Source: an archaeon (lineage in GTDB: Archaea; EX4484-52; WAPT01). Taken from it: a stretch of DNA of 21,359 bases. The notes under the pieces were generated by a model. That model saw only the letters and a list, made by a program, of their open reading frames with translations, was not told where the DNA came from and searched no databases. The stretch covers positions 1-21,359 of the forward strand of contig JAPDKB010000020.1 of the NCBI GenBank assembly GCA_029258795.1, written 5' to 3'. The position numbers were made by a program, and so were the translations under genes. Below, piece after piece: positions 2-19,481 of the stretch (the stretch's first letter is position 1; each line of letters begins with the position of its first letter).

Positions 2-2299
2 CTTACCCTGGAGCTTGGCCTGCCATTCCTCGAATGTCGGTGTCTTGCCTGCCTGTGCAAGCTCTGCCACGAGCTGGTTGGCTGCCGGACCACCAACCAG
101 TATTATGTTCTTTGCACCCTTGTACTGTCCTGCCTCTGTATCGAGAGCTGCTATTCCAGTTCCAGCCAGTGCTGGGAATGTCATCTCGGCAGCTCCGGTG
201 CTCACAGTTCCACCGAACTGTGGATCAGGTCCTATAGCGACAGTGTAGTACACCTGCTCATCTGGGTATGTTATTGTTACCTTACCCTGATCATTGACCA
301 GTTTCTCCACATAGGTACCCCATCTTGTCAGAGAGGTGTATTTGTCGTCGTTGCTACCCCACTGTTCGAAGCCCATGTCGTAGAGGCCTACACCCGGTAC
401 ATATCCATACACTACGACGTTATCGACAGTTATATATTCGTTGCTTGTATCCCAACCCGCATAAACAATCGTTGCGCCCTGGTGGTCGTCGTCATCCTTT
501 TCTTCTATTATCAAAACTGCTGGCTTTGTTGTATCTTTCAGGGTTATTTCGACATTTGATCCTTGTGCAGTGAAGTTGTATAGCGAGCAGAGTTCATCCG
601 AACTTGAAATTCCTGATGTGGTGGTTACTGTACCCTCACATCCAGGTAGTTTAACCAAGGTGTTATTTTCTACTGTAACAGGTGCCACGAACGCTAGCTC
701 TTCACCTTTTCTGAGTTTCATTACTGGGAACACCACTGTTTCGGTTCCTGCATCATTATAACTGGCGCCGTCTCCCCATGTCACAGTAACGTCCGTGCCA
801 TCGGTAGAGAAGTAATACGTGTATCCGTCGATCACCTTACTTCCCTGTCCAGTACCGTTTAAGTTGACTTTGTATGTTGTGCCCGTGATCACATCCTCAA
901 GTTCTATCTCGTTGTCGCTATCACCAGAGCTGTATTTTATGTCCTTGACTTTCAGAATGTGTGCAAAATCTCCATCTTTTGAAATCACCAAGTACCCTTT
1001 CTCGGGTATTCCCTGCCCTTCATACGTCATTACTGGTTGTTTGTCGTCGTTATCAAGATATAAATTGCCGGAGTCATCTGCATATGCAAACGTCACGGTC
1101 TTCGTGTTTCCTCTCTTGTCGGTGAATTTCACTGTTGCATAGTCATCTCCAGATGTGCTGACCACAATCTGGTCAGCTGTTGGTAATACCTCTGCGGTGT
1201 TGTCCTTGAACTTGACTTTGAAGCCGAATACAGGATCCACAAACTCGCCACCGAGTGGTATGAAGTCGCTGTCGGAATCTTGTGCTGCAACTTTTATTTC
1301 AATGGTGGAAACTCCCTCACTTCCAGTAGTAATGGAAACAGTAGTACCGTCTACAGTATCTTCGTCTTTTCCTATTTTAACGGATTGCCCATTTTCTAGG
1401 ACAACTTTCTTGCTTCCCACTGTTAGCACAACATTACCGGTCTTCTCTGGTACTTCGTAAAGGTTAATTTCTTTTACATGGAATACTGTATCTCCTATAG
1501 TTACGTCATCTCCCTCGCTTTTTGTGTAGCTCTTGCCATTAATCACAATAGTTGCTGATGTTCCATCCGAACCTATACCTGCCACACTTACCGTGTACTC
1601 GTTTCCGTCAATTGTTACTGTTGTTTCCTGTCCAGCTGCAACTGTTATTTCCTGAGAAGCTTCGTACAGGATGATTTTCTGGTCGGTAGAATCTTGACCT
1701 ATTGTAAATTCCTTACCAAACAACTCTATTGTATTGCCCTGAACATCGGAGTTTGAGAAGTTAAGCTCATCGTTGAAAACGACCTTTAGGGTGTATAGTG
1801 GGTCGTTATAGTCAGTTCCTACATCTACATACACGATTGGGTCATCCAGATCACCGGGCTTACCTGCCTTTACTTGTTTATTTCCAATGTAAATGTACTG
1901 GTCATAGTCATACTCCTCTCCAGTGTCATCTGTTACTGTTCCGCTTGCGAGCAGGTTCGGCAGGTCATCACTTGTCAATGCCTGCTTTGCCTTATCAATT
2001 GTGTCGAGCAGATACACCTTCTCGCTCTCGGTTTCGAGAGCGACACCGTTTGTAACTTTTGTCACTTCTCCTCCTCCAGTCACTGTTGCCTCAGCTCCGT
2101 GCCTTGCCAGAGCTGCTGCAACGTTTATTGCACCAACAACGTCTGCTGTCTTTGCGTTTGCTCCCACCACAACCACTGTATCTGCTGTCGTCATGTCTTT
2201 GAATGCAGACAGGTCTGCAGCCAGAGCTCCAGCCAGCACAGCAGAGCTGGCCATCAAGGAGCCGACCAATGTAGCTCCTATTCTCTTCAGCTTCTGCAT
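2..2299 (-). CDS. S-layer protein (S_layer_N/S_layer_C type), 3' end beyond the left window edge; at least 766 codons
   Basis: Manual translation from ATG 2299 gives a signal peptide MQKLKRIGATLVGSLMASSAVLAGALA, then VVVGANAKTADVVGAINVAAAL and DDLPNLLASG. The body is T/D/G/V-rich with sequons NFS, NGT, NNT and NFT, and NIILVGGPAANQLV lies near the edge. The frame was consistent at every point checked. RBS GGTGAG lies upstream. It is absent from the ORF track because there is no stop in the window. Confidence 0.9.
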   Translation of the reverse strand, partial: MQKLKRIGATLVGSLMASSAVLAGALAADLSAFKDMTTADTVVVVGANAKTADVVGAINVAAALARHGAEATVTGGGEVTKVTNGVALETESEKVYLLDTIDKAKQALTSDDLPNLLASGTVTDDTGEEYDYDQYIYIGNKQVKAGKPGDLDDPIVYVDVGTDYNDPLYTLKVVFNDELNFSNSDVQGNTIELFGKEFTIGQDSTDQKIILYEASQEITVAAGQETTVTIDGNEYTVSVAGIGSDGTSATIVINGKSYTKSEGDDVTIGDTVFHVKEINLYEVPEKTGNVVLTVGSKKVVLENGQSVKIGKDEDTVDGTTVSITTGSEGVSTIEIKVAAQDSDSDFIPLGGEFVDPVFGFKVKFKDNTAEVLPTADQIVVSTSGDDYATVKFTDKRGNTKTVTFAYADDSGNLYLDNDDKQPVMTYEGQGIPEKGYLVISKDGDFAHILKVKDIKYSSGDSDNEIELEDVITGTTYKVNLNGTGQGSKVIDGYTYYFSTDGTDVTVTWGDGASYNDAGTETVVFPVMKLRKGEELAFVAPVTVENNTLVKLPGCEGTVTTTSGISSSDELCSLYNFTAQGSNVEITLKDTTKPAVLIIEEKDDDDHQGATIVYAGWDTSNEYITVDNVVVYGYVPGVGLYDMGFEQWGSNDDKYTSLTRWGTYVEKLVNDQGKVTITYPDEQVYYTVAIGPDPQFGGTVSTGAAEMTFPALAGTGIAALDTEAGQYKGAKNIILVGGPAANQLVAELAQAGKTPTFEEWQAKLQGK

Positions 2300-2395: not shown

Positions 2396-2658
2396 TTGAA
2401 ACTGTTTCACACGAAAAATGATGTTCGCAATGCAATATTTTTTTCATCGATTTCTATGCTTTTCTTTAAGATAATTGTTTCAAACTTCAATTTTTCTTTT
2501 ATTTTTCTAAAACATTCAAAATTCTTTGATTTTGATTTTTGCAGTTTGTGAAACCACCATCATGCCATAGTTCAGCTTGATCTTGAATCATCCAAGATGT
2601 GAAAGTAACAACGAGAGGTGGATAAGCTTTCCATCATTCTCACGAAATTTTTAATGAT

Positions 2659-2712
2659 ATACTGCCTCATGGTACAAAATTATAAAAATACGTACTACAT
2701 ATAATACAAGTC
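2659..2712 (+). promoter_or_regulatory. Promoter and putative operators of ATPase 1
   Basis: TTATAAAA at 2680-2687 is flanked by GTAC (2672-2675) and the imperfect palindrome GTACTACATATAATAC (2692-2707, 12/16). ATG is at 2713, with no SD. Confidence 0.55.
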
Positions 2713-4017
2713 ATGAGACGATATCTTATAGATAAAAAGGAAGATATAAAAGAATTGGAAGTAAAAGAAAGGGAGATTGGTTTCTTTGAAACACGATCTG
2801 TGGCTCAAACCATAATTGGGCCCAGAAGAGCTGGAAAGAGTTTCTCGCTCTTCTTTTGGATAAAGAAAAAAAAGCTAAGAGATGAGGATTATATCTTTGT
2901 GAACTTTGAAGATGATGAAATCAAAAACATGAAACGTGATGAAAAGGTTAGGTGTATTGAAGCACACCTTGAAATATACGGTAAGGAACCGAAATATCTG
3001 TTCTTTGACGAAATTCAGGAGCTTGAAAGATGGGAATCCTTTCTTTACAGTTTGGTGGAGAAAAGAAGATACGCTATTTTCGTAACGGGCTCAACCTCGA
3101 AAATCTCTAGCAAAGAAATAGCTTCAGAGCTTCGCGGTAGGTGTATAACAAAAGTTGTATTCCCTCTCAATTTTAGAGAATACATTAAAATAATGAGTGA
3201 GTATCACACCGCACCTCTTTCGAGTAGAAAGGAAAACATAATAAAACACAGACTTAAAACTTATCTGAACAGTAGTGGTTTTCCACAGATAGTGATAGAT
3301 GGTCTACCCCCAAAACTCTTCATTCGGGAGTATATTTCTACAGTCGTTTTTAGAGACCTTGTGGAGAAGTATCACATAGACAGCTTGTCAAATGCCCGTT
3401 ATTTTTTGGGTCGTGTTGTTGCAGCTTACGGAAATAGATTTTCAATTAACAAGGTTTATAATGAAATGAAGTCTTCAGGAATGAAGGTGGGTAAAGGTGT
3501 TCTCTACAATTATCTTGCTTATCTGGAGGATCTGTTGATAGCATTTTCATTAAGAAAATTCAGTTACTCAGAGAGAGAATCACAAGTATCCATCCCTAAG
3601 GTATTTCTGTGTGATCATGGGCTAGCCAATTACTTCATGACGACAAGATTTTCCGAAAATATTGGTAGGAATATGGAGAATGTGGTGTTCATCGAACTGA
3701 AGAAAGAATCATTCGAGAAAGATATTGAAATATTCTATTATCATGATCCGTTACAGCAGTACGAGGTTGATTTCGTTGTGAAGGAGGGAATGGAGGTGAA
3801 GCAGCTGATACAGGTCTGCTATGCTTCAAACTTTGATGAGGTGGAGCACAGGGAGCTCAGAGCATTGCTGAGAGCGAAGGATGTGCTGAACTGCAGGAAT
3901 TTGCTTGTCATAACATGGGATTATGAGGACACAAGAGAAATCAGGTGGTTTGGGAGAACTGGAAAAATAAGGTTTGTGCCTTTGTGGAAGTGGTTGCTCA
4001 ACCTCGCTAAAGCGTAA
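2713..4017 (+). CDS. AAA_14 + DUF4143 ATP-binding protein (COG1373 family), copy 1
   Basis: Walker A GPRRAGKS, Walker B FFDEIQ, TGS, LRGR, GFP, a wHTH-like segment, MENVVF and EVDF..LIQV. Confidence 0.92.
   Translation: MRRYLIDKKEDIKELEVKEREIGFFETRSVAQTIIGPRRAGKSFSLFFWIKKKKLRDEDYIFVNFEDDEIKNMKRDEKVRCIEAHLEIYGKEPKYLFFDEIQELERWESFLYSLVEKRRYAIFVTGSTSKISSKEIASELRGRCITKVVFPLNFREYIKIMSEYHTAPLSSRKENIIKHRLKTYLNSSGFPQIVIDGLPPKLFIREYISTVVFRDLVEKYHIDSLSNARYFLGRVVAAYGNRFSINKVYNEMKSSGMKVGKGVLYNYLAYLEDLLIAFSLRKFSYSERESQVSIPKVFLCDHGLANYFMTTRFSENIGRNMENVVFIELKKESFEKDIEIFYYHDPLQQYEVDFVVKEGMEVKQLIQVCYASNFDEVEHRELRALLRAKDVLNCRNLLVITWDYEDTREIRWFGRTGKIRFVPLWKWLLNLAKA
3753..4002 (+). repeat. Conserved 3' block, type A (pairs with 7863-8112)
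   Basis: 250 nt with 11 mismatches to 7863-8112 by manual alignment; offset 4110. Confidence 0.95.
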
Positions 4018-4128
4018 TCCTCAGGGCGTCAGATTTTCAACAGCACTCCTAGGATCCTGTGCTTTCGCCATCCTCTAAAATTAGTGACTTATGGAAACGG
4101 TTATAAGATTGTACAAAATTAATTAAAA

Positions 4129-4180
4129 TGAATCCCATTGGGATTAAATTTTATATATTTTTGAATCCCACTTATACCAT
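4129..4180 (+). promoter_or_regulatory. Promoter and putative operators of ATPase 2
   Basis: Palindrome AATCCCA-T-TGGGATT at 4131-4145 and TTTATATA at 4150-4157. TGAATCCCA is repeated at 4129 and 4162 (33-bp period). Confidence 0.7.
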
Positions 4181-5434
4181 ATGCTCAGGGATTATCTAAT
4201 AGAAATAAAAAGGGACATCTCGGAGCTGAGAGTGTATCCCCGAGATATAGATGTAAATGTGAATTATCCTCTTGCAATAGTTGGTCCTAGAAGAGCCGGA
4301 AAAAGTTTTTTTCTGTTTCATCTTATAAAAACGCTAAACCTTAATGAAGAGGACTACCTGTACGTCAACTTCGAGGACTATGAAGTAAAGACGACAGACC
4401 CGTCCCAGCTGTTACCGACGCATTTTGAAATATACAGGCGAGAACCAAAATACCTTTTTTTGGACGAGGTTCAGAGCATAAAGAACTGGAGCCATTTTGT
4501 GTACTCTTTGGTGGAGCGAAAGAAATACAGAGTCATCCTGAGCGGTTCTTCATCAAAGCTTTTATCAAAAGAGGTGGCATCTTTCTTGAGGGGTAGATTC
4601 CTGTCAAAGCTCTTGCTTCCTCTCTCGTTCAGCGAGTTTCTGACGTTCAGGAACGTGATGCTGGATGAAATTCTGAGCAGGAAGGACATATCGATAGTAA
4701 GAGGTTACTTAATGGAGTACCTGAAAAACGGAGGATTTCCTGAAATAGTTCTCGGGATCATAAGAAAAAAAGACTTTGTGAGGCAGTATCTGGATGTGGT
4801 GCTTTATAGAGATTTTGTTGAGAGATTTAATATAGAAAATCCGGAGGCAGCCAAATTCATTCTTTATTCTCTGATCCAGTCGAACGCCTCGAAAATCTCA
4901 TCAAACAAAATCTATAATCAGCTCAGACAGATAACAAAAGTGAGCAACAAAACGGTGAGGAAATATCTGTCTCTCTTTCAGGACACTTTGGTGATATTTT
5001 TCACAAAGAAATTCCATTACTCTGCGAAAAAAACACATCTGTCGCAACCCAAAATTTATTTATGCGACCTCTCCCTAGAGCTTGAGGAAGATGGTACGGG
5101 AAGAAAGATGGAAAATGTGGTGTTCTTGAATTTAATAAGGAGGGATCAAGAACCGTTCTACTTTGAAACCCATGAAGGCTATGAAGTGGATTTTCTGATT
5201 AAAAACGGCTTCCGGATCAAACAACTTATCCAAGTGACTTATGCCAGTTCCTTTGACGAGATAGAGCACAGAGAAATAAGGGCGTTGCTGCATGCTTATG
5301 ATGTGCTGAAGGAACACAAACCGGAACTGCTTGTGATAACATGGGATTATGAGGACACAAGGGAGATCAGGTGGTTCGGAAAGAGCGGGAAAATAAGGTT
5401 TGTGCCTTTGTGGAAGTGGTTGTTGAAAATTTAA
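4181..5434 (+). CDS. AAA_14 + DUF4143 ATP-binding protein, copy 2
   Basis: GPRRAGKS, FLDEVQ, SGSSSKLL, LRGR, GGFPE, MENVVF and EVDF..LIQVT. Confidence 0.92.
   Translation: MLRDYLIEIKRDISELRVYPRDIDVNVNYPLAIVGPRRAGKSFFLFHLIKTLNLNEEDYLYVNFEDYEVKTTDPSQLLPTHFEIYRREPKYLFLDEVQSIKNWSHFVYSLVERKKYRVILSGSSSKLLSKEVASFLRGRFLSKLLLPLSFSEFLTFRNVMLDEILSRKDISIVRGYLMEYLKNGGFPEIVLGIIRKKDFVRQYLDVVLYRDFVERFNIENPEAAKFILYSLIQSNASKISSNKIYNQLRQITKVSNKTVRKYLSLFQDTLVIFFTKKFHYSAKKTHLSQPKIYLCDLSLELEEDGTGRKMENVVFLNLIRRDQEPFYFETHEGYEVDFLIKNGFRIKQLIQVTYASSFDEIEHREIRALLHAYDVLKEHKPELLVITWDYEDTREIRWFGKSGKIRFVPLWKWLLKI
5267..5425 (+). repeat. Conserved 3' block, type B (copy 2)
   Basis: 5327-5382 is identical to 6669-6724 (56 nt). 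5390-5422 is identical to 3964-3996, 8074-8106 and 9408-9440 (33 nt). Confidence 0.93.
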
Positions 5435-5486
5435 TAATAACCATAATACAAAAATTTATAAAAATTGTATACCCATTATACAAATC
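5435..5486 (+). promoter_or_regulatory. Promoter and putative operators of ATPase 3
   Basis: TTTATAAA at 5455-5462 and palindrome TTGTATA-CCCAT-TATACAA at 5465-5483. CCATwATACAAA occurs at 5441 and 5473 (32-bp period). Confidence 0.7.
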
Positions 5487-6779
5487 ATGGTATTCAACGA
5501 CAGCCTTGTTTTGGAGTTCTTTGAAAGTATGGAGCGGAGATTGAAAACAGAGGATATAATTGAGAGAGATCTAAAAACAAAACCCGTCCGTGATAAGGTT
5601 GTAGTGATAATCGGTCCGAGAAGAGCTGGGAAAACTTACTATTTATTCCACAAGAAAAGAGAGCATGGTGGCGTCTACATCGATTTTGAGGGCATAGAGT
5701 TCAGCAAACTTGAGGGTGAAGATGTGATCAAAATAGTGAAATTGTATGAAAATTACTACAGCAGGAAGGTCGATGTGATCTATTTGGATGAGGTACAGAG
5801 TTTAAAAAACTGGGAAAGAGTTGTGAGATCGCTTTTGAATCTCAATTACAAGGTGTACGTCACAGGATCATCCTCTAAGCTTTTGAGCAAGGAAATCGCT
5901 TCTCTTTTAAGGGGCAGATCTCTCTCCTACCTCCTCCTGCCGTTCTCATTCGAGGAATTTCTGAAGGTAAAGCAACTTACCAAAAAAGAAACGTATTCTA
6001 TTTCAGAGGTCACCCGCATAAAGAATTATTTGAGAGATTACCTCGATATTGGTGGTTTTCCCGAAGTGGTTCTTAAAGAGGAAAAAGAAAAAATTCTGAG
6101 GGAATACGTTGACTTGGCTTTTTTCAAGGATTTCGTCGAGAGACACGAAATAAAGAGCATGGAAGTGGCCAGAATAATCTTTGAATACATTTTGCAGAAC
6201 TTCTCAAAGGAAATATCAATAACAAAAATTCAGAACTTCATAGAAAAAACAATCGGAGTGAAAACAAAGACCACAATCTACGATTATCTAGAGAAACTGC
6301 AAGACACCATGTTTTTCTTTTTTGTAGAGAGATATGAACCCAGTGTTTACAAGAGAAAAAAGTATCCAAAAAAAGCATATCTATGTGATGTGGGCCTGAC
6401 GAAAATTTTCAGATTTTCTGAGGATTCTGGCAAAAAGATGGAGAACGTTGTATTTCTAGAGATTTTAAGAAAAACTAATGAGAAAGCAATGGAAATCTAT
6501 TATCTGAGGACACGTGAGGGTTATGAGGTTGATTTCTTAGTGAAAGATGGTGAGAGAGTCACACAGCTTATACAGGTCACGCGTGCATCAGCTTTCGATG
6601 AAATAAATCACAGAGAAATAAGGGCGTTGCTGCACGCTTATAATATCCTAAAAGAACACAAACCGGAGCTGCTTGTGATAACATGGGATTATGAGGACAC
6701 AAGGGAGATCAGGTGGTTCGGAAAAAGCGGAAAGATTAAATTCTTACCCCTCTGGAAGTGGTTGTTGGATATCAAATAA
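5487..6779 (+). CDS. AAA_14 + DUF4143 ATP-binding protein, copy 3
   Basis: GPRRAGKT, YLDEVQ, TGSSSKLL, LRGR, GGFPE, YLCDVG, MENVVF and EVDF..LIQVT. Confidence 0.92.
   Translation: MVFNDSLVLEFFESMERRLKTEDIIERDLKTKPVRDKVVVIIGPRRAGKTYYLFHKKREHGGVYIDFEGIEFSKLEGEDVIKIVKLYENYYSRKVDVIYLDEVQSLKNWERVVRSLLNLNYKVYVTGSSSKLLSKEIASLLRGRSLSYLLLPFSFEEFLKVKQLTKKETYSISEVTRIKNYLRDYLDIGGFPEVVLKEEKEKILREYVDLAFFKDFVERHEIKSMEVARIIFEYILQNFSKEISITKIQNFIEKTIGVKTKTTIYDYLEKLQDTMFFFFVERYEPSVYKRKKYPKKAYLCDVGLTKIFRFSEDSGKKMENVVFLEILRKTNEKAMEIYYLRTREGYEVDFLVKDGERVTQLIQVTRASAFDEINHREIRALLHAYNILKEHKPELLVITWDYEDTREIRWFGKSGKIKFLPLWKWLLDIK
6564..6767 (+). repeat. Conserved 3' block, type B (copy 3)
   Basis: 6570-6622 is identical to 9246-9298 (53 nt), and 6669-6724 is identical to 5327-5382. 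Confidence 0.93.
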
Positions 6780-6787
6780 TTGAAAAC

Positions 6788-6837
6788 TTCCTCATAATAA
6801 GGAAAAATTTTTAAAAAATTAGTTCTATAATAAGGAC
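6788..6837 (+). promoter_or_regulatory. Promoter and putative operators of ATPase 4
   Basis: Imperfect palindrome TTCCTCATAATAAGGAA at 6788-6804 and TTTAAAAA at 6810-6817. ATAATAAGGA occurs at 6794 and 6827 (33-bp period). Confidence 0.7.
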
Positions 6838-8127
6838 ATGCTTCGAAAAGATGTAGTGGATTTTCTAAAAGAGTACGAAGAATTCAGGCCAGAAATAATC
6901 GAGCGGGATTTAGAAATAACACCAAGCATCAAATTTATAACCTCGATAATCGGTCCGAGAAGGGCCGGGAAAACTTACTATCTTCTTCATCTTAGAGAAA
7001 AATTCAAAAAACCCCTGTATCTCAACTTTGAAGACACGAGACTAATGGACACAAAGGGAAAAGAGCTCAGAGAGATCATAAGAATATTCATGGAAATATA
7101 TGGTGCTTCTCCAGATGTGCTGCTTTTAGATGAGGTTCAAAATCTCCCTGAATGGGAAGGAGTGCTCAGAGAGCTTCACGACCTGAAGAAATATCCAATA
7201 GTAGTGACGGGCTCTTCATCCCGTCTTCTTGCAAGAGAGATAGCAACACAGCTGAGGGGGAGAACGCTAACGTACATTCTTTTACCTTTTTCCTTCACTG
7301 AATTTTGTAAAGCAAAGAAAATAATCGTTAATGACTTGCTCTCCAGAGATGAAGAAGCGAAATTTATTGCCCTTCTAAGAGAATATCTCCAATTCGGTGG
7401 GTTCCCGGATGTTGTTTTGAGCGAGGATAAACTGAAGATCTTAAAAGAATATTCAGATCTTATTCTGTTCCGGGATTTCATTGAAAGACACGAAATCAGA
7501 AATCTGAGCCTAGCAAGACATATATTTTCGTTCATCACGCAGAATTTTTCAAAGGAGATATCGGTAAACTCCCTATACAATCGCTTCCGTTCCAGCGGTC
7601 TGAGAGTTTCCAAGGACACCATCTACGAATATCTGGAAAAGCTTGAGGACACGCTTTTTGTTTTCTTCCTGCAGAAATATTCTCTGAAAGTGCACATGAG
7701 AGAATCATATCCAAAAAAAGTATATGTGTGCGACACGGGAATAACACGAGTTACGAGATTTAGCGAGGATTTGGGCAAGCTCATGGAAAATGCTGTTTTT
7801 CTGGAGCTCAGGAGGAGGGAGAACGCGAACCCGTTGCAGGAAATCTACTATTTCAAGGATGCACAGCAGTACGAGGTTGATTTCGTTGTGAAGGAGGGAA
7901 CGGAGGTGAAGCAGCTGATACAGGTTTGCTATGCTTCAAGCTTTGATGAGGTGGAGCACAGGGAGCTCAGAGCATTGCTGAGAGCGAAGGATGTGCTGAA
8001 CTGCAGGAATTTGATTGTGATAACATGGGACTATGAGGGCACAAGGGAGATCAGGTGGTTCGGGAGAACTGGAAAAATAAGGTTTGTGCCTTTGTGGAAG
8101 TGGTTGCTGAACATCAACTTTCCGTAA
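6838..8127 (+). CDS. AAA_14 + DUF4143 ATP-binding protein, copy 4
   Basis: GPRRAGKT, LLDEVQ, TGSSSRLL, LRGR, GGFPD, YVCDTG, MENAVF and EVDF..LIQVC. Confidence 0.92.
   Translation: MLRKDVVDFLKEYEEFRPEIIERDLEITPSIKFITSIIGPRRAGKTYYLLHLREKFKKPLYLNFEDTRLMDTKGKELREIIRIFMEIYGASPDVLLLDEVQNLPEWEGVLRELHDLKKYPIVVTGSSSRLLAREIATQLRGRTLTYILLPFSFTEFCKAKKIIVNDLLSRDEEAKFIALLREYLQFGGFPDVVLSEDKLKILKEYSDLILFRDFIERHEIRNLSLARHIFSFITQNFSKEISVNSLYNRFRSSGLRVSKDTIYEYLEKLEDTLFVFFLQKYSLKVHMRESYPKKVYVCDTGITRVTRFSEDLGKLMENAVFLELRRRENANPLQEIYYFKDAQQYEVDFVVKEGTEVKQLIQVCYASSFDEVEHRELRALLRAKDVLNCRNLIVITWDYEGTREIRWFGRTGKIRFVPLWKWLLNINFP
7863..8112 (+). repeat. Conserved 3' block, type A (pairs with 3753-4002)
   Basis: About 96% identical to 3753-4002 (11 mismatches in 250 nt). 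Confidence 0.95.
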
Positions 8128-8129
8128 TG

Positions 8130-8161
8130 AAATGCACAAAAATTTAAATTTTTGTGCATTT
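8130..8161. promoter_or_regulatory. 32-bp perfect palindrome centred on the TATA box of ATPase 5
   Basis: AAATGCACAAAAATTT|AAATTTTTGTGCATTT, with TTTAAA at 8143-8148, about 26 nt before ATG 8172. Confidence 0.75.
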
Positions 8162-8171
8162 AATGTTGATC

Positions 8172-9455
8172 ATGTTGGAGATTCATGAAAGACTCCTTCG
8201 ACAGAAGAGAGAAGTTGAAAACATACTCGCTGAAAGGTTCGTAGAGAGGGATCTGCTCCGGAAAATGAAAAGATGGCTGAACTCAGATATTATAAAAATT
8301 GTGTCTGGAGTCAGACGCTCCGGAAAGTCGTTCCTTGCCATTCATTCTGTCAAGAACGTTCCTTTCGCATACGTGAACTTCGATGATGAGATGTTATGCG
8401 AAGCAAAGTTTGATGAGATTCTGAAACATCTCCGTGCAATTCACGGAGATTTCAAACTCTTGATTCTTGATGAAATTCAGAATGTGGATAGATGGGAACT
8501 TGTGGTAAACAGGTTGAAAAGGGAAGGGTACAACCTCGTGATCACAGGCTCAAACGCCAACCTGCTCAGTAAGGAACTCGCAACACACCTAACCGGCAGA
8601 TATGTTGAATTCACACTCTACCCCTTCAGCTTTCTGGAATACCTGAGAGCAAGGAACGTGAAACTGAATGTTGAGGTTGCCGAAGATGTGGGTGATCTTC
8701 TTCATCATCTGGAAGATTACATGAAGAGTGGCGGGTTCCCGGAAGTTGTAATTAAAAATTATGATCCACAGGAGTACCTGAACACCCTGCTGAAGGCGAT
8801 ACTGCTAAAAGATATTGTAAACAGATACAGACCAAAGTATCCATCGCATATTTCAAATTTAGCATATTACCTCCTCTCGAACATAAGTCACAGAGTATCG
8901 TTTTCCCGGCTCAAAAACATTCTTAATGTTGGAAGCGTCCACACAGTGGAGAAATACTGCAATTATCTACAGGAAGCTTTTATTTTCTTTTTCCTGAGAC
9001 CGTTCTCCTATAAAATAAGTGAACAATTAAAATCTCCCCGCAAAGTTTATTGTGTAGATACAGGATTTATTCGCTCCTCTGGTTTTCGCTTCTCTGAGAA
9101 TTTCGGAAAATTCATGGAAAACATAGTTTTTCTGGAACTTGTAAAAAAATTCAGATGCAACCTCGAGCTGTTTTATTATCATGACGTTGCTCGACAATAT
9201 GAAATTGATTTTCTCGTAAAGAGCGATCTGAGAGTTAGGCAGCTCATACAGGTCACGCGTGCATCAGCTTTCGATGAAATAAATCACAGAGAAATAAGAG
9301 CTTTGCTGCACGCTTATGATGTCCTAAAAGAACACAAGCCGGAGCTGCTTGTCATAACGTGGGACTATGAGGACACAAGAGAAATCAGGTGGTTTGGGAG
9401 GAGTGGGAAAATAAGGTTTGTGCCTTTGTGGAAGTGGTTGCTGGGGATCGGTTAG
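8172..9455 (+). CDS. AAA_14 + DUF4143 ATP-binding protein, copy 5 (most divergent)
   Basis: GVRRSGKS, ILDEIQ, TGSNANLL, LTGR, GGFPE, YCVDTG, MENIVF and EIDF..LIQVT. I moved the start from GTG 8154, which lies inside the promoter palindrome, to ATG 8172 to match the TATA spacing of the other copies. Confidence 0.9.
   Translation: MLEIHERLLRQKREVENILAERFVERDLLRKMKRWLNSDIIKIVSGVRRSGKSFLAIHSVKNVPFAYVNFDDEMLCEAKFDEILKHLRAIHGDFKLLILDEIQNVDRWELVVNRLKREGYNLVITGSNANLLSKELATHLTGRYVEFTLYPFSFLEYLRARNVKLNVEVAEDVGDLLHHLEDYMKSGGFPEVVIKNYDPQEYLNTLLKAILLKDIVNRYRPKYPSHISNLAYYLLSNISHRVSFSRLKNILNVGSVHTVEKYCNYLQEAFIFFFLRPFSYKISEQLKSPRKVYCVDTGFIRSSGFRFSENFGKFMENIVFLELVKKFRCNLELFYYHDVARQYEIDFLVKSDLRVRQLIQVTRASAFDEINHREIRALLHAYDVLKEHKPELLVITWDYEDTREIRWFGRSGKIRFVPLWKWLLGIG
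9240..9443 (+). repeat. Conserved 3' block, type B mosaic (copy 5)
   Basis: Shares 53 nt with copy 3, GAGGACACAAGAGAAATCAGGTGGTTTGGGAG with copy 1, and the 33-nt end with copies 1, 2 and 4. Confidence 0.93.
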
Positions 9456-9457
9456 CA

Positions 9458-11833
9458 TCAGCTCTCACTGAGCTTTGACCTCATTTTCTCGAACATCTTC
9501 GCGAGCTTCTTTATCTCCGTCTTGCTCACCTTACCCTTTCCGTAAAATTCCAGCAGCTTTTTCGCAACATCCTTCAACTCTATCATCCAGTAAATGGAAC
9601 CCTTACCAAGCTCTTCCTTAACCTCCTCCCAGCTCTTGCCCTGCAAAACCTTGGTGATTATGAGCATTTTGTGCACCTCATCAAGCTCCGGCTTTCTGTC
9701 AGCAAGAAACGCTGCTCTGCACACCTCAAACATGCAATCTCGCACACTCTCAAACGTTAAAATGCTGTAAGCATAGCACGCCAGCCTTTTCCACTGCACC
9801 TCCGTCAGATCAGGCCTGAATCTTCTGAAAGCCCCACCCCCACCCATCACCTCAAGAATCAGTTCAGCTGGCACCTCATCGAACGGCTCTGGCAGCGAGT
9901 TCACGAGCTTTATAAGGAATTCCTCTCTTGCCATTGCAAAAAGCTGCTTTGCCTTCTCACTTATGGGCTTGACAACGATGGTCGAGAACTCTCCCGTTGA
10001 TGGGTTTGGAGCCGGGGCCATGTGTAATGGTGTGTAGTTGTTCTTCTTCCAGAAGTTGAGTAGCTTGGCGGTAGCACCGAAACTTGCGCCAACCCAGTCG
10101 TAGCCGGCTTTGCTGGCTTCCTCTTCCAGCTTGGAGAGCATATAGCTTCCAATACCCCTGCCCATTAGCTCGGGGTGTACTGCTATCCTCACAACCCTCA
10201 ACCCCTCCATCCTGCCGAACTCGGCATTTCTGTAGTGTTTTATCATCCTGTCCGGAATCAGATGCCCGGGCGGCATATCTCCGTAGTACATGTCATAAGC
10301 TTCTTTTTCCAGCCCGCCTTCCTTCGCTATCTGCAAAGCACAGACCACCTTGCCGTTGAATGTGAGCGCTCTTATTACGTGGTGGGGTGCATCACACATC
10401 ATACCGAAATCGTTCGGATTGTTTCTGTAGTGAGCTGTGACAAAAATTCCGAAAAGCTCGCGCAGCTTTTTCTCATCTGAAAACGGCAGAGTTTCCATAT
10501 CCACCTTTTCGTACTTCAACTTCTCCCTGCTGATGCTTTCTTTTTCCTCCTCACTTAATTCCGGTGGCTCAGCATCCAGCAAAAGAACATCGAACAGCCA
10601 CCTCTCTACGGGGTCATTCTCCCCATACCTGATCGGTTGAATCATCTCGTGCTTTACATGTTTCATGGAAGCTTCGTCCAAGCTCCGCAGGAATATTATG
10701 TTAAAGCTTCTGCCAGAACCCTCATAGCCGTGAATGGTTGTTGAGTAAACAACTTTTTTGGCGTGCTTCATCGCTTCAAAAAGAATGTTGACTGGGATGG
10801 ACGCTGCCTCATCCACCACGAGCAGATCAGCTTTAACCTTCTTTATCTTGTAAGGCGGAAAATATCTGATCTTCGAGCCCGTCTTCTTTATTATTATATC
10901 CTCCATGCTCTCGTAATGTTCCATAACCCTCGCGTTTATCTTTGCCTTCCTTAATCCGGCATCCAGAAACTTGTAAAGTTCCTTCACATTCGACCTTTCG
11001 GGCGCGCTTACAACAACATTGACCTTTTCCTTTATCACCAGCGCGGCTATAAACAATCCAAGCAAGCTCGACTTACCCCTACCTCTATGAGACGTCAAAA
11101 TGAATATGTTCTCCCCGCCCTCCCTAAAAAACCTCCACAGCTTCTCAAGCCCTTCAAGCTGGTCCTGCGTTGCGCAGAGTTTCAGAATCTTCCTCTTTAT
11201 CTCGCTTTTATCCGGAATTTCAACCTCTTTTTGCTTCGATCTTCTCTTTCGAATCTTCGCCATTTTTACAGGCACACCATCCTCAATTATGGTTATTCCC
11301 TCATGCTCCATCAGCTTCTTCACGAACCACCTGTTGAAAACACGCCTTACATGCTCCTCGCTATAAGGAGGAACGAGAGCCATCCTGTGGAACCTAGTGA
11401 AAATATTCCTATACTTCTCCAATCTCGGCATGAGAAAAATCAGAATGCCTCCTCCCCTAACCACACCCACAATTTTTCCCAGATCGTTCGGAGCAATCCC
11501 TTCATTGAGGTCAAGGATCAAGCCATCATAATTTGTGCCAAGCAAAGCGTCAACCTCCTTGAACCTGAAAAAATCGTAATTTATGTTCTCCTTTTCCAGC
11601 AGTTTTTTTATCTCAACGCTCATCTCCTCCTCCAGATCCCTGCCCACCCAGAGAAAAACCATATCCTTGATCTTCTTCCTTTTTCCATTCTCAACAACTT
11701 CCTTGTAAGCCCTTATTATGTGTTCCACACCCCTTACCTTGGTTTTGAACTTGCCCGCTACAACGAACACTCTCCTCTCATTGAGATTTATTGCATTTTC
11801 CATCACTTTCTGCGCTTGCTTAACCCACTCCAT
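9458..11833 (-). CDS. tmcA: RNA cytidine N4-acetyltransferase TmcA/Nat10 (helicase-like ATPase + GNAT)
   Basis: LLGTNYDGLILD..PNDLG..VRGGG, RGRGKSS, VDEAA, STTIHGYEGSGR, PIRY..NDPVERWL, AHYRNNPND and RVVRIAVHPELMGRGIGS. Confidence 0.93.
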   Translation of the reverse strand: MEWVKQAQKVMENAINLNERRVFVVAGKFKTKVRGVEHIIRAYKEVVENGKRKKIKDMVFLWVGRDLEEEMSVEIKKLLEKENINYDFFRFKEVDALLGTNYDGLILDLNEGIAPNDLGKIVGVVRGGGILIFLMPRLEKYRNIFTRFHRMALVPPYSEEHVRRVFNRWFVKKLMEHEGITIIEDGVPVKMAKIRKRRSKQKEVEIPDKSEIKRKILKLCATQDQLEGLEKLWRFFREGGENIFILTSHRGRGKSSLLGLFIAALVIKEKVNVVVSAPERSNVKELYKFLDAGLRKAKINARVMEHYESMEDIIIKKTGSKIRYFPPYKIKKVKADLLVVDEAASIPVNILFEAMKHAKKVVYSTTIHGYEGSGRSFNIIFLRSLDEASMKHVKHEMIQPIRYGENDPVERWLFDVLLLDAEPPELSEEEKESISREKLKYEKVDMETLPFSDEKKLRELFGIFVTAHYRNNPNDFGMMCDAPHHVIRALTFNGKVVCALQIAKEGGLEKEAYDMYYGDMPPGHLIPDRMIKHYRNAEFGRMEGLRVVRIAVHPELMGRGIGSYMLSKLEEEASKAGYDWVGASFGATAKLLNFWKKNNYTPLHMAPAPNPSTGEFSTIVVKPISEKAKQLFAMAREEFLIKLVNSLPEPFDEVPAELILEVMGGGGAFRRFRPDLTEVQWKRLACYAYSILTFESVRDCMFEVCRAAFLADRKPELDEVHKMLIITKVLQGKSWEEVKEELGKGSIYWMIELKDVAKKLLEFYGKGKVSKTEIKKLAKMFEKMRSKLSES

Positions 11834-11873: not shown

Positions 11874-12236
11874 ATGCCCCACAATAATGATGAAAGCACG
11901 GAAGAACCAAAAAAGAAGAAGCTGAAATTTCTGCAGGATTACAAGGGACTTATTCTTTCTGGAGCGAAAACCTCCACCATAAGGAAAGGCCACAAATCCA
12001 AGTATCAGGAAGGGGATGTGGTCGATATTGTTGCTGGAGATGAGGTGATAGGAGAAGCTGTAATAAAAGCTGTCAGGCACACAACCTTCAAGGAGCTAAC
12101 ACCAAAAGACGCAAGAAAGGATGGTTTCTCAAGCAAGTCAAAGCTGAAGAAAGCTCTCAAGGAAATCTATGGTGAGTTCAAGAGCGATGACCCGATAACC
12201 CAGATAGAGTTCGAGATGGTAAAGAGAAAAAGGTGA
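11874..12236 (+). CDS. ASCH domain protein (YqfB-like)
   Basis: LKF..Y...ILSGAKTSTIRKG matches the ASCH GxKxxTxR motif, followed by GDVV and ELTPKDARKDGF..LKKALKEIY. Confidence 0.88.
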   Translation: MPHNNDESTEEPKKKKLKFLQDYKGLILSGAKTSTIRKGHKSKYQEGDVVDIVAGDEVIGEAVIKAVRHTTFKELTPKDARKDGFSSKSKLKKALKEIYGEFKSDDPITQIEFEMVKRKR

Positions 12237-12240
12237 GCAG

Positions 12241-14343
12241 TTACACTGTTACTGTTGAGATTATAGGACCAAATATTGCCATGATAAGCGCGTAAATTAG
12301 CAGATACATGGGCAGGCCCACCAGTAACAACTTCCATATTGTGTCGTGTTCATAAACCTTATCATCTCCTGCTTCTATCCTTGCTATGAACATGCCGGAA
12401 ATGATCAGCACTTCCACCACATAAATACCCACCACCAGCTGAAGAAGTTCTGAAGGTATTGCACCACCTCCGAGTCGGGGTAGGTTGCTTTCAGGCAGAC
12501 CTTCAACACCCCCGCCGATATCCAGCGTGCTCATCTGTTGCATTATCTTTTCCAGTATGTTGAGTATGAGTTTCGCTATACCCACAACCACTCCAGAAAT
12601 AACTGGCACGAGCACGTAGGCCTGGAATTTTAAGCTCGAAACCACGGTGGAAAGCAGATCCTCTATCTTCTCCTGAGTTGTGCGTATGTTGCGCAAATAC
12701 CTGCCTATTGTTAGCATGACTACAGCAGCTGACCTCGAGCCGTGCTGGATTGCGTCGGCTATAGCTTTCATTATGGCGGAAATCATGGCTGAAGGATAGT
12801 AGCGTAAAGCTCCGAACTGCTTGTTGAAGATAGCTTCCTTGAAGGTCATGTTGAGCTGTGTCATGTTCTTTATTATAATCCTTAGAAAATCCGCTATCTT
12901 CATTTCTTTGATGTCCTGCTCCGCTTTTACAAGCGCCGTCTCGACCGGCAGCTCATCCATCAGCCGGTTACCCAAGGCAAAAAGCACTTCCTCGTACTCC
13001 TTTTCCATCTCTATTATTTCCTGTCTCAATTTTCTCTTCTGAAAACAGCTGAGGTAAAAGTAGAGAGCTGCACTCATGCCAAGCAAAACAACAAAACCCA
13101 TACTGACAAGCATTGTATGGCTAATGCTCTCAACCTTGGTTGTAAAAAAGTTGGTTAAAATCATGATTTTGAGGAGAGGTGCAGAAAGAGTGAGGAAAAG
13201 TGCTGATGCTGGCAAAATGGCTGGAATGATGATGCGTTTACCTATAATATCTATCTTGAACTTTCCTGGAGGTATATAATCAGGATGCTTGCTTATCTCA
13301 ACGGTGGTGTGTGTTGGAGGTCTTTTCATAAATATCTGGTTTAGTAGTATGAACACGAATAGAGGTAAAACTACATCATAACCAACGAAGAGTGTCTTTC
13401 CTATATTTGGCCCGATCTCCTGCATGAACACACCCACGAGAGGGAAAACTATCATACCCATAACAGGCAATAGTATGCCCAAACCGTGCAACACCATGAC
13501 AGGTGTTTCCAGCTCCCTCACATACCTCTTCATCTGCTCATCCATTTCAAGGAGAACCAAATCGATTGCTTTGTTCAGCATCATGTCTTTTCTTTCTGGA
13601 GATGGTTCGAGCATGCTCTGCCTTATGAGGTGGATTGCCTCCACCAGCTCTTTATTGTAGCGCCTCCATACCTTCAAATAGTCAAGAAGAGCATCCTCAA
13701 CCGTTGTGAACTGTCCTATTTCAACTTTCCACAGAACTTCTTTTAAGTCCTGGGCAAGCTTCCCTTCCAGATTGGAGGCAGCAAATCTTACAGCTCCTTC
13801 AAAATTAGGGTTGGTCTTCATGTATACTATCATGTAAAGCACAGCCAGCAAAAGCTCCTTTCCAGTCCTTATCCTCATCCAAGCAGCTTTGTGGAGGGGA
13901 TAGTAAATGATGAGATAAGCTATGATAATGGGTACGAGTAAAAGTCCTATCTTTATGTAAGCTGAAATGGGGAAGTAAAAAGTGGGAATAAGGAATATGA
14001 GAGAAATTATTGCCATAAGTACGCCAGTGGATATGACTTCCGTGGGCTTGACTTTCAATCCTGCAAAATTTATTGCGGCTTCCAGTTCATTCATGAAATC
14101 ATCAGAAAACTTTATATTGAGGTTGGGTGCTGATTTACAAAGTTTTTCATAATAGGTTAGCATTTTCGCTTTCAGCTCTTCCTCTTTGAAAAGCTTGTAC
14201 TCTAGTGAGATCGCTTCCTCTCCTTCCTTTTTTTTCTCTTCAGGAACTATAATATTGTATCTTTTAACTATTTCCTTCATCAACCTCTCTTTTTCCATTT
14301 TTTCTTCCAGCTTTTCCTTTTCCTTGGATGCCATCCCGCTCAC
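12241..14343 (-). CDS. Type IV pilus/T2SS-F membrane platform protein (TadB/TadC/ArlJ-like, two repeats fused)
   Basis: About 700 aa multi-pass membrane protein with two T2SSF-like cytoplasmic repeats (NPNFEGAVRFAA; ELPVETAL), 2 bp downstream of a secretion ATPase. The start may be ATG 14334. Confidence 0.8.
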   Translation of the reverse strand: MSGMASKEKEKLEEKMEKERLMKEIVKRYNIIVPEEKKKEGEEAISLEYKLFKEEELKAKMLTYYEKLCKSAPNLNIKFSDDFMNELEAAINFAGLKVKPTEVISTGVLMAIISLIFLIPTFYFPISAYIKIGLLLVPIIIAYLIIYYPLHKAAWMRIRTGKELLLAVLYMIVYMKTNPNFEGAVRFAASNLEGKLAQDLKEVLWKVEIGQFTTVEDALLDYLKVWRRYNKELVEAIHLIRQSMLEPSPERKDMMLNKAIDLVLLEMDEQMKRYVRELETPVMVLHGLGILLPVMGMIVFPLVGVFMQEIGPNIGKTLFVGYDVVLPLFVFILLNQIFMKRPPTHTTVEISKHPDYIPPGKFKIDIIGKRIIIPAILPASALFLTLSAPLLKIMILTNFFTTKVESISHTMLVSMGFVVLLGMSAALYFYLSCFQKRKLRQEIIEMEKEYEEVLFALGNRLMDELPVETALVKAEQDIKEMKIADFLRIIIKNMTQLNMTFKEAIFNKQFGALRYYPSAMISAIMKAIADAIQHGSRSAAVVMLTIGRYLRNIRTTQEKIEDLLSTVVSSLKFQAYVLVPVISGVVVGIAKLILNILEKIMQQMSTLDIGGGVEGLPESNLPRLGGGAIPSELLQLVVGIYVVEVLIISGMFIARIEAGDDKVYEHDTIWKLLLVGLPMYLLIYALIMAIFGPIISTVTV

Positions 14344-17954: not shown

Positions 17955-18416
17955 TTATTTCTTAGCTATCAAATACACAGCCCCAAAAGTCACTAAAAGA
18001 ACTATGATCGTCATGACTGTTTCTGAACTGATTGAAGCTGTGGTGCCACTTGCAAGCATGTATGCAATGGCAACTATTATTACTGCGCCTATTCCGGCTA
18101 TGTATTTGGTATCGCCTCCAAAAACCTCTTCCGGCTTGACGCCGAAAAGAGCCAAGAAAATTATCAGAATTACTATAGCGGCTATTATCGTTCCCGCTAT
18201 CCCGAAAATCTGGGTGAAGAAAACACCCCTCAATGTGTACGTTGCCAGGAAAGCTATGGCTATTGCTATTGCACCATTCACCGAAACTTCCTCACTTATC
18301 GTTTTTTTGTTCTGAAGGATTCCAAAGACCACTGCAAGGATAAGAACGAATGGCATGAAAAAGTCGTAAAATCCGAGCTGTGCCAGGTTATCAAGCACAC
18401 TCTGAATCAAAGACAT
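17955..18416 (-). CDS. Small multi-pass membrane protein, paralog A
   Basis: About 5 hydrophobic segments, motif LGFYDFFMPFVLILAVVFGILQ, RBS GGTGAG. Confidence 0.85.
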   Translation of the reverse strand: MSLIQSVLDNLAQLGFYDFFMPFVLILAVVFGILQNKKTISEEVSVNGAIAIAIAFLATYTLRGVFFTQIFGIAGTIIAAIVILIIFLALFGVKPEEVFGGDTKYIAGIGAVIIVAIAYMLASGTTASISSETVMTIIVLLVTFGAVYLIAKK

Positions 18417-18444
18417 TCGCGCTCACCTATAGGATGATTCACTT

Positions 18445-18936
18445 TCATCCTCTCATCGCTATCCAGATGACCAGCAGGATGAATCCAAATACGAACAGCA
18501 CGGTCATAGTTTCCTGCGAGATACCAGCTGAAAGTCCTCCGCCGTAAGCGTTATTGTAAACTATCCATGCAAGAATGACCAAAGCTGCAACCACAATGTA
18601 TTTTATTTTGTCTTCTTGGAATATTCCGCCTTTCCCACCTCCAATCTCGAAGCCCATTATCGCAACAAAAAGCACCAAAACTAAAAGCGCTGACAGTATC
18701 ATGGACATGCCGCCGAAGAGTCTGGAGTAATAAGCGGCTATACCTCCAACAGGAGTGTAGTTCACAACAAAGAATGCTATGGCTGCTGAGATTATTGCGA
18801 TTATACCTCTATCCTCTCCAAAAATTCCAGTCCTCTGGAGCAATCCAAAAACTATGCCGAAGAAGAGGAGCCAGGGTAAAACAAAATCATAAAAGCCGAC
18901 CTGATTCAAAATGCCTATGACATCAAGGAAGTTCAT
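18445..18936 (-). CDS. Small multi-pass membrane protein, paralog B
   Basis: MNFLDV..LNQVGFYDFVLPWLLFFGIVFGLLQ. I placed the start at ATG 18936 from RBS AAAAGGTGAG and alignment to paralog C. Confidence 0.85.
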   Translation of the reverse strand: MNFLDVIGILNQVGFYDFVLPWLLFFGIVFGLLQRTGIFGEDRGIIAIISAAIAFFVVNYTPVGGIAAYYSRLFGGMSMILSALLVLVLFVAIMGFEIGGGKGGIFQEDKIKYIVVAALVILAWIVYNNAYGGGLSAGISQETMTVLFVFGFILLVIWIAMRG

Positions 18937-18956
18937 TTGACTCACCTTTTCAACCA

Positions 18957-19481
18957 TTATTTTTCTTGTTGATTTCCTCCACCGCCTTTCCCACCGCTCA
19001 TCGCTATCCAGATGACCAGCAGGATGAATGCAAGTGTGAGTATCACCACAAGCGTGTCGTTTGAAAGCCCTGCCCTTCCGTATCCACCAAGAGCGTTGGT
19101 GTATGCTAGATAAGCAAAGATGACAAGCATTATCACGACAGCGTATTTTATCGGAGGTTGTTTATCTCCACCCTCCTTGAACACATTCTCCACACCCATG
19201 ATAGCTGCGAACAGCATTAACACGAGTAAAGCTCCTATAATCATTCCAGCCCCTCCAAACAGTGTGGAGAAAAACTGAGCAAGAGTTGTGCCAGCGGGAG
19301 TGAAAGCAACTATGAAAAACGCTATGGCTGCTGATATTATTGCGTTTATGCCTCGCTCTTCAGTTATTATTTTCTTGTTTTGTAACAATCCAAAAATTAT
19401 GCCGAAAAACAGAAGCCACGGTACGACCACATCATAAAAGCCAACCTGATTGAGCACGTTCAGCACGTCAAGGAAGTTCAT
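18957..19481 (-). CDS. Small multi-pass membrane protein, paralog C
   Basis: MNFLDVLNVLNQVGFYDVVVPWLLFFGIIFGLLQ, RBS GGTGA. Confidence 0.85.
   Translation of the reverse strand: MNFLDVLNVLNQVGFYDVVVPWLLFFGIIFGLLQNKKIITEERGINAIISAAIAFFIVAFTPAGTTLAQFFSTLFGGAGMIIGALLVLMLFAAIMGVENVFKEGGDKQPPIKYAVVIMLVIFAYLAYTNALGGYGRAGLSNDTLVVILTLAFILLVIWIAMSGGKGGGGNQQEK

Follow-up and report, generated by a model that had tools for sequence, protein, structure and literature searches.

A head-to-tail array of five PDC-S01 genes

We analysed a window of 21,359 nucleotides of archaeal DNA (contig JAPDKB010000020.1 of assembly GCA_029258795.1, GTDB lineage EX4484-52, WAPT01) that carries an array of five genes of the candidate defence family PDC-S01. 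Gene calling in the window found five consecutive and intact open reading frames (ORFs) on the plus strand, arranged head to tail between positions 2713 and 9455, which we call c1 (2713-4017, 434 aa), c2 (4181-5434, 417 aa), c3 (5487-6779, 430 aa), c4 (6838-8127, 429 aa) and c5 (8154-9455, 433 aa when counted from the GTG at 8154). Because the database gene call for c5 has 427 aa, the ATG at 8172 is probably the likelier start, and if c5 begins there the c4-c5 spacer measures 44 nt rather than 26. All five proteins match the PADLOC PDC-S01 model PDLC04787 (E 2.7e-87 to 2.3e-104; 2.4e-89 for c1) from model position 7-31 to 407-408 of 412, approximately, and all five carry the Pfam domains AAA_14 and DUF4143 (6.7e-31 and 8.8e-19 in c1), that is, an ATPase fused to a domain of the PD-(D/E)XK superfamily.

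An earlier note, written from the sequence of this window, had described these genes as diverged ATPase bodies that end in a near-identical mosaic 3′ block, had read them as a cassette array anchored by recombination and lacking an integrase, and had proposed sliding-window identity and a comparison of N-terminal with C-terminal trees as checks. We refer to the first ~355 codons of each gene as the body and to the last ~85 codons as the tail. By codon alignment, the tail blocks lie on the plus strand at 3754-4017 in c1 (from the QQYEVDF codons to the stop codon), 5174-5434 in c2, 6516-6779 in c3, 7864-8127 in c4 and 9192-9455 in c5; the c4 and c5 blocks are also supported by the run test described below and that of c4 by repeat search. 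The blocks are of two types, A in c1 and c4 and B in c2, c3 and c5. A degenerate 41-nt pattern of the block has exactly five matches in the window, with 0 expected from 100 shuffles, and its matches are spaced by 1426, 1342, 1342 and 1334 nt. Tail remnants were not found elsewhere in the window, where the search returned just chance-level matches (E > 0.05).

Nucleotide identity, measured per 20-codon window, ranges from 21 to 76% in the bodies and climbs to a maximum of 98% over the last ~85 codons. Synonymous sites in the bodies are saturated in every one of the ten pairs, the proportion of differing synonymous sites (pS) being 0.76-0.87. The strongest tail similarity is that of c1 and c4, which share 250 nt with 11 mismatches starting at 3753 and 7863 (253 nt at 95% by repeat search) and have a tail pS of 0.14 against a body pS of 0.87. 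For the remaining nine pairs pS is 0.59-0.76 across the whole 85-codon tail, and these pairs are therefore identical only in patches: 53 nt in c3/c5 (6570-6622 and 9246-9298), 56 nt in c2/c3 (5327-5382 and 6669-6724), 35 nt in c1/c5, and, at the end of the block, 33 nt in c1/c2 and in c2/c4 and 36 nt in c2/c5 and in c4/c5. Overall, identical tail tracts between copies span 33-70 nt, and the proportion of differing nonsynonymous sites (pN) in the tails is 0.02-0.22.

These counts agree with the earlier note on the divergence of the bodies, the block spacing, the c1/c4 repeat, the 53-nt and 56-nt runs and the 33-nt end common to c1, c2, c4 and c5 (33-36 nt on recount). The run that it reported for c1/c5 exists and is longer than its 32 nt. 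Its statement of near-identity over the last 160-250 nt, down to synonymous sites, describes c1/c4 and does not extend to the other nine pairs.

The length of the shared tracts was compared with a codon-resampling null, in which the amino acids are kept fixed and the codons are redrawn from local usage (5000 simulations per pair for tails, 1000 for bodies). For nine of the ten pairs the longest tail run was reached in at most 0.16% of simulations, and for c1/c3 in 1.2%. Over the 355 body codons the longest runs are just 9-18 nt, a length reached in 278-926 of 1000 simulations for nine pairs. A patch at the Walker A motif of c3 and c4 (37 nt at 95%, 5606-5642 and 6945-6981) has an identical core of 18 nt, reached in 34 of 1000 simulations, which is marginal.

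Furthermore, the tails are mosaic. Site partitions along the block run through 14/235, 124/35, 15/234, 145/23 and 1245/3 (digits denoting copies), so that the best partner of a copy switches within the block, as the earlier note had seen. Of 1485 pairs of informative sites, 440 are incompatible. The incompatible pairs are spatially clustered: a PHI-like test found a value as low as the observed one in 177 of 10000 permutations, which lends the mosaic moderate support.

Bodies and tails have different histories

Relatives were collected by one contig scan with the two most conserved tail peptides, which gave 232 confirmed relatives; the best 80, in 76 loci (designated by L numbers), were kept. 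The source genome is absent from those 76 loci, and the comparative cases described here come from other lineages and not from relatives of this array. Among the best 80 of the 232, the closest are 50-55% identical, and most belong to DPANN archaea, Thermoproteota and Methanosarcinales, while a few are bacterial.

When the window copies were compared with these loci, each body found its best match outside the array (48-62% amino acid identity, versus 30-48% for array mates), whereas each tail found it in an array mate (85-91%, versus at most 74% outside). A search of 5.8 billion proteins with the c2 tail gave the same picture, the best match from outside the window being 78-79% identical and the array mates 84-86%.

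The two parts of the genes also yield incongruent trees. The body tree (352 columns) puts each copy in a place of its own, and well-supported branches separate all five. The c1 body lies in a well-supported clade with L001 and L002, c2 in one with L003, L006, L007_9932 and L011, c3 in one of eight rows with L005, L043, L056, L064, L021 and L054, and c4 in one with L046 and L050, while c5 is sister to L063_7063 (support 95, also counted as strong). Body relatives that are closer than the array mates come from other archaeal phyla. In the tail tree (78 columns) the same copies form two groups, c1 with c4 (96, well supported) and c2 with c3 and c5 (89), and none of 500 label shuffles was as clustered. 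In approximately unbiased (AU) tests on the bodies, a clade of all five copies was rejected (log-likelihood difference, delta lnL, 506; p 5e-5), as was a grouping of c1 with c4 (delta lnL 216, p 2e-29). On the tails, with the AU test run under LG+G4, placing c4 with the relatives of its body clade was rejected (delta lnL 74, p 0.008).

The linker that follows the WDYE motif in the tail tells the same story in a discrete character. An 18-row, well-supported body clade holds c1 and c2, and all 16 of its members from outside the window have a linker of 13 residues. A 17-residue linker of a type that we call WF is found in that clade in c1 and c2 only, and all five window copies carry it. The 117 full-length relatives of the c4 body divide into 96 with the short linker, 4 with the WF type and 17 that could not be classified. 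Since the linker type departs from that of the body-clade relatives, the tails of c1 and c2, at a minimum, have been replaced by the array's own type, and that of c4 probably has been as well.

A search with the c4 body also retrieved a 305-aa variant of c4, P0048, from a separate contig of 1498 bases. Compared as proteins, P0048 and c4 differ in the tail at 13 of 89 positions and in the body at 1 of 216 aligned positions; at seven of the tail differences P0048 has the residue of another window copy, and a stretch of 24 residues is identical to the c3 tail. Because this variant joins a c4-like body to a c3-like tail end, tail recombination appears to be recent at the population level.

Tail identity at the DNA level is confined to copies in the same locus

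Tail motifs are kept across phyla (median identity between loci 58% for tails and 35% for bodies, at the amino acid level), and the residues that are near-invariant throughout the family concentrate in the tail. The likeness of the five tails as proteins is therefore largely a property of the family, and a control for constraint was made at the DNA level with pairs whose body identity does not exceed 70%. For 29 pairs of co-resident copies (10 of them from the window) the median longest identical tail run is 32 nt, and 16 of the 29 reach 30 nt, versus a median of 11 nt and only 2 of 3177 for pairs from different loci. With the comparison restricted to tails at least 65% identical, 30 nt is reached by 15 of 26 co-resident pairs and by 1 of 557 pairs that are not co-resident. 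Collectively, these results indicate short-tract gene conversion, because identity of the tail DNA is confined to copies that reside together.

The pattern recurs in other arrays. Same-strand tandem arrays are present in L039 (five copies), L029 and L063 (three each) and L005, L007, L024 and L066 (two each). Among the 20 co-resident pairs from these seven loci, 10 have a tail run that was reached in at most 2 of 500 simulations, one of the pairs being a recent whole-gene duplicate. The multi-copy loci comprise 24 copies; for 15 of these the tail finds its best match in a co-resident copy, whereas the body does so for 2.

One of these loci shows a separate peculiarity. In L063 (96-6188) a 3037-bp segment comprising AbiEii and AbiEi toxin-antitoxin genes and one family copy is duplicated in tandem at 99.3% identity. 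The duplication ends inside the tail, and the two family copies have a pS of 0.00 in their bodies and 0.25 in their tails, a difference that may reflect either tail exchange on a fresh duplicate or an effect of assembly.

Whole units differ between closely related contigs

Two closely related contigs, L024 and L027, whose flanking proteins are 97-100% identical, carry two copies and one copy of the gene, respectively. L027 aligns with L024 through copy 1 as far as the tail and then continues with L024 from the tail of copy 2 onwards, with an overlap of 220 nt and a difference of 1683 bp. Within the overlap, L027 has the bases of copy 1 at all 49 discriminating sites up to column 217 and those of copy 2 at 28 of 31 from column 222; the switch falls within the ITWDYE codons, and the ORF is intact. 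The event may have been either a deletion or an insertion. These contigs support the view that a crossover in the tail block can add or remove a whole unit of promoter and gene while leaving an intact ORF. By analogy, units may have been gained or lost in the window array too.

Single units are also shared between otherwise dissimilar loci. In all four cross-genome pairs that we compared (L007/L039, L033/L029, L046/L050 and L023/L029) the sole shared gene is one family unit, 83-91% identical in amino acids, and the DNA homology extends from ~35-80 nt 5′ of the start codon to about the stop codon. No homologous flanking ORFs were found in these pairs at E<=1e-5 (three pairs) or at E<=1e-10 (L007/L039). 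Orphan remnants of the tail are found next to arrays or single copies in L005 (8380-8556), L010 (2140-2319), L064 (1086-1607), L039 (about 7999-8061) and L024 (14355-14451). Some of these pieces contain stop codons, and that of L024 directly follows a gene for seryl-tRNA synthetase.

Plasmid and phage collections contain distant relatives of the family only. They were found on 283 plasmid records, 172 of them from Acinetobacter, with a best match to c4 of 37.5% identity, and on 19 phage records, all below 60%. Those that are annotated are mostly named 'ATP-binding protein'.

Family assignment and the question of a defence role

PDC-S01 is described as a single gene that combines an ATPase with a PD-(D/E)XK domain, and ranks fourth in abundance among the defence candidates of prokaryotes; 9986 instances are counted in Archaea, where it is enriched (PMC12988326). 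DUF4143/COG1373 is listed among the PD-(D/E)XK families (PMC3424549). Searches of NCBIfam gave no meaningful match for the five copies, and a sequence search against solved structures returned nothing below E 0.24.

The ATPase part is well preserved. The Walker A and Walker B residues G39, K45, D98 and E99 (c4 numbering) are invariant in 84 alignment rows, and the motifs of the five copies read G(P/V)RR(A/S)GK(S/T) and (D/L)DE(I/V)Q. In the nuclease-like domain, the D of EVDF is invariant in the subfamily alignment, and the catalytic (D/E)xK motif is altered: the position of the canonical E (as in IEVK) is Q in 80 of 81 rows, and the next-but-one position, the canonical K, is T, C or S in 79 of 81 subfamily rows (residues 360-365 in c4, for example). 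The E and the K are seen in the relatives L045_7886 and L062_2996, in an alignment that is thin at this point, with just three canonical or divergent relatives. As Q-x-(T/C/S) takes the place of E-x-K, the domain may lack the usual cleavage activity and may be inactive or repurposed.

A PDC-S01 representative has been assayed in E. coli B, where it is not named among the four of eight candidates that protected, in challenges with T7, T5 and T4 (10.1101/2024.09.26.614923). PDC-S01 is an unvalidated candidate, and a defence role of the array is a candidate role suggested by family membership. The surroundings are not those of a defence island: by the Pfam scan (the PADLOC scan covered the five copies), the array has as its neighbours in the window an S-layer gene, tmcA, genes for membrane proteins and for a T2SSE-type ATPase, and an ORF with an ASCH domain. 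In one relative, L063, a family gene stands beside AbiEi/AbiEii. Neither tandem arrays nor tail exchange is mentioned in the passages on PDC-S01, DUF4143 or COG1373 that were available to us, and the tree in Supplementary Fig. 10 of PMC12988326 may bear on how new these features are.

Neighbouring genes and upstream elements

The array is flanked by the S-layer gene (2-2299, minus strand) on one side and by tmcA (9458-11833, minus strand) on the other. The nearest TmcA relative among 5.8 billion proteins (P0122) is just 74% identical, and the source lineage is therefore poorly sampled. An ASCH-domain ORF of 120 aa (11874-12236, plus strand; Pfam E 1.9e-18) lies between tmcA and a membrane-protein gene, a hydrophobic ORF of 700 aa that has no Pfam match (12241-14343), and the Pfam scan of the window ORFs assigned the following gene (14346-16619) to the T2SSE-type ATPases. 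No integrase, transposase or recombinase domain was found when 22 ORFs of the window were compared with Pfam. The array has a G+C content of 0.35-0.43 (2500-9500), versus 0.43-0.50 in the S-layer and tmcA flanks, a weak hint that the region was acquired.

Downstream of the T2SSE-type ATPase and the 700-aa ORF, four adjacent small ORFs (153, 170, 174 and 164 aa; 17955-20039, minus strand) appear to encode hydrophobic membrane proteins. Three of them have a common N-terminal motif around GFYDF/GFYDV, and Pfam gave no family for the four; they may form a second family of tandem paralogs, perhaps pilin-like.

Upstream of every copy of the array there is a run of 15-20 nt consisting of A and T only, which ends 16-22 nt 5′ of the start codon. 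On the plus strand these runs lie at 2676-2690 for c1 (a TATA-box-like candidate promoter element, ending 22 nt before the start), 4143-4162 for c2 (18 nt), 5450-5466 for c3 (20 nt), 6803-6821 for c4 (16 nt) and 8138-8153 for c5. Archaeal TATA boxes are located ~26 nt upstream of the transcription start, and the placement of the runs thus suggests that each unit has its own promoter and a short or absent leader. The c2 run is enclosed in an imperfect palindrome (4139-4170, TGGGATT ... AATCCCA) and that of c5 in a palindrome at 8127-8164 on the plus strand, with 19-nt arms that are 95% complementary and have no spacer; a scan of the upstream regions for palindromes revealed none for c1 or c4. 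One might guess that these palindromes are copy-specific operators, a guess weakened by the frequency of palindromes in A/T-rich DNA. The promoter/operator and the helix-turn-helix (HTH) that the earlier note included in each unit are best called putative.

Probable gene conversion of the tails and its alternatives

Taken together, these results favour one explanation, to which we give a probability of roughly 80%: the locus consists of five complete PDC-S01 paralogs, arranged head to tail, with old bodies and with tails that have been overwritten by short-tract ectopic gene conversion. Tails group by genome and bodies by lineage, an excess of synonymous identity in tracts is found in co-resident copies only, and the tails are mosaic. 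The same signal recurs in arrays of other lineages, and one insertion or deletion of a unit in relatives has its junction in the tail.

In this explanation the bodies represent five old and separate lineages of the family, each gene probably being transcribed from its own promoter. The tail comprises the second half of the restriction-endonuclease-like domain (the end of the DUF4143 region) and a C-terminal extension. Purifying selection would keep the tail DNA similar, the tail being the most constrained part of the protein family-wide, and for this reason the tail is presumably the only stretch similar enough for host homologous recombination to use as a substrate. Repeated ectopic conversion between members of the array would then have produced the two tail types (c1/c4 and c2/c3/c5) and the mosaic of 33-70 nt, and would have raised tail similarity further. 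The same stretch would be the point of unequal crossover, by which whole units of promoter and body could be gained or lost in frame. Such a passive account of the tail exchange is the most likely one.

Several points weigh against this explanation. The window is probably a single assembled metagenomic contig, in which a chimeric strain consensus or a wrong order of units is possible. The groups in the clade tests were chosen after the trees had been seen, the tail tree rests on a short alignment of 78 columns, and the PHI-like test is just moderately significant. No tail signal was found in the L007 pair (271 of 500 simulations reach its run) or for the third L063 copy. The short P0048 contig could itself be a product of assembly, the single copy of L027 could be an assembly jump, and unit gain or loss in the window array is extrapolated from other lineages.

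The strongest rival is compatible with gene conversion and adds a purpose to it, and we regard it as possible, though rather unlikely. It proposes a selected modular system, in which tails are kept matched because the members co-assemble or share one partner, and in which the tail DNA serves as an integrase-free, in-frame docking site. The tail would be a 'constant region' specific to the genome, with its uniformity actively maintained, and travelling units of promoter and body would be captured, lost and reordered by host homologous recombination. Such a system would fit the clustering of tails, though not of bodies, by genome in several lineages, the single units shared by all four cross-genome pairs, the orphan remnants beside arrays in L005, L010, L064, L039 and L024, and the presence of the WF-type tail on several body clades. 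However, tails of different genomes share too little DNA identity (a median run of 11 nt) for easy capture of foreign units, and passive conversion in the most conserved stretch accounts for the data with no added selection.

An artefact of assembly is improbable. Chimeric metagenome assembly over the repeated 3′ blocks, or the mixing of strains, could generate a mosaic and possibly a false order of units, and the window does seem to be a whole metagenomic contig, with repeats 1.33-1.43 kb apart and a strain variant, P0048, that carries another tail. But the identical tracts are at most 70 nt long, which is shorter than usual read lengths, the five ORFs are all intact, the partner switches fall inside the tails and not at unit boundaries, and seven further multi-copy loci, from other records, show the same pattern.

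Purifying selection alone, acting on a constrained C-terminal domain with no exchange of DNA, is already disfavoured and has very little probability left. It would account for tail motifs kept across phyla (58% versus 35%), for near-invariant residues that concentrate in the tail and for a low tail pN (0.02-0.22), but not for identical tracts beyond the codon-resampled expectation at fixed amino acids, for their near absence in equally similar tails that are not co-resident (1/557 versus 15/26), or for a linker type that tracks the genome and not the body clade. Equally remote is a conserved functional DNA or RNA element (a terminator, small RNA or binding site) in the 3′ block: the blocks do sit just 5′ of the promoter-like A/T run of the next gene, but synonymous sites are not conserved between genomes, and the idea of an RNA element was dropped after Rfam gave 0 matches at the gathering score and RNAalifold found no support from covariation in the five tails (its covariation term was +1.8, which penalises, and many pairs were broken).

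With gene conversion as the preferred explanation, the earlier note can be judged on its larger claims. Its proposal of recent or ongoing recombination in the 3′ block is supported: the synonymous-run tests, the incongruent trees and the co-resident control confine the recombination to the block, and P0048 suggests that it is recent. Its crossover that moves a whole unit and regenerates an intact ORF is seen in relatives (L024/L027) and is an extrapolation for this array. An integrase-free array is consistent with the domains found in the scanned ORFs; it may be an evolved cassette system or a by-product of host homologous recombination acting on the one stretch that selection keeps similar. 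Its sensor or defence locus is a candidate reading, given an unvalidated family, a tested representative that is not among the protectors and neighbours that are not defence genes. The variable island that it proposed beside the S-layer gene is a candidate reading as well, in a lineage so poorly sampled that the nearest TmcA relative is 74% identical.

Significance and comparison with known systems

Region-limited concerted evolution and unequal crossover are known processes, proposed here for the commonest archaeal candidate defence family. The array marks a natural domain boundary in the protein. On one side is a variable part, the ATPase with the initial portion of DUF4143, which evolves as independent old lineages, and on the other a constant tail whose history is that of the genome; the boundary could guide the choice of cut sites for domain swaps. 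This constancy suggests that the tail meets something host-specific or the other copies. For studies of the family, the array is a caution that whole-length trees mix two histories, and together with its relatives it offers a concrete archaeal case of integrase-free change in copy number with a mapped junction. Gene arrays of this kind may stay modular and be able to gain or lose whole units. If the selected modular system were to prove true, the array would be an analogue of the integron, based on homologous recombination, that serves the commonest archaeal candidate defence gene.

Compared with PDC-S01 as described, the window copies conform to the family in the near-full-length match to the model and in the AAA_14 and DUF4143 domains of all five. 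They differ in belonging to a subfamily with Q and T/C/S at the positions of the nuclease motif where two canonical relatives have E and K, and in tandem arrangement and tail homogenisation, which the available published passages do not describe.

The closest parallel in process is region-limited gene conversion. Archibald and Roger reportedly described, in 2002, gene conversion among the paralogous subunits of archaeal chaperonins. There as here, paralogs of the same genome swap short tracts, and part of the gene tracks the genome. Unlike in that case, the lineages of the partner bodies here split before the sampled archaeal phyla, the exchange affects one terminal domain only, and the same block marks the insertion or deletion of a unit.

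Rhs and CDI toxin loci offer a second parallel. In their tandem modules a conserved stretch permits swapping with no dedicated recombinase, and truncated remnants accumulate. The likeness lies in a shared stretch that lets homologous recombination swap the variable parts and in remnants beside the main gene. There is no sequence relationship, however, and the polarity is reversed: in Rhs/CDI the constant part is N-terminal, the variable toxin tip is C-terminal and the orphans are silent, whereas here the constant part is C-terminal and every unit is complete and probably expressed.

Integrons are same-direction arrays of single-gene cassettes that depend on a site-specific integrase and attC sites. 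The window array resembles them in its same-direction, single-gene units that differ between relatives. It departs from them in that no integrase was found in the window, the junctions lie in a coding tail and each unit apparently has its own promoter; no attC-like site was seen, and none was searched for.

Finally, the NLR clusters of plants and fungi (PMC13449251) are likewise tandem arrays of receptors that contain an ATPase and evolve by gene conversion and unequal crossover. In these clusters exchange is generally regarded as a source of diversity in the variable recognition part. In the PDC-S01 array, in contrast, it is the constant part that exchange makes uniform, and the variable part is not affected.

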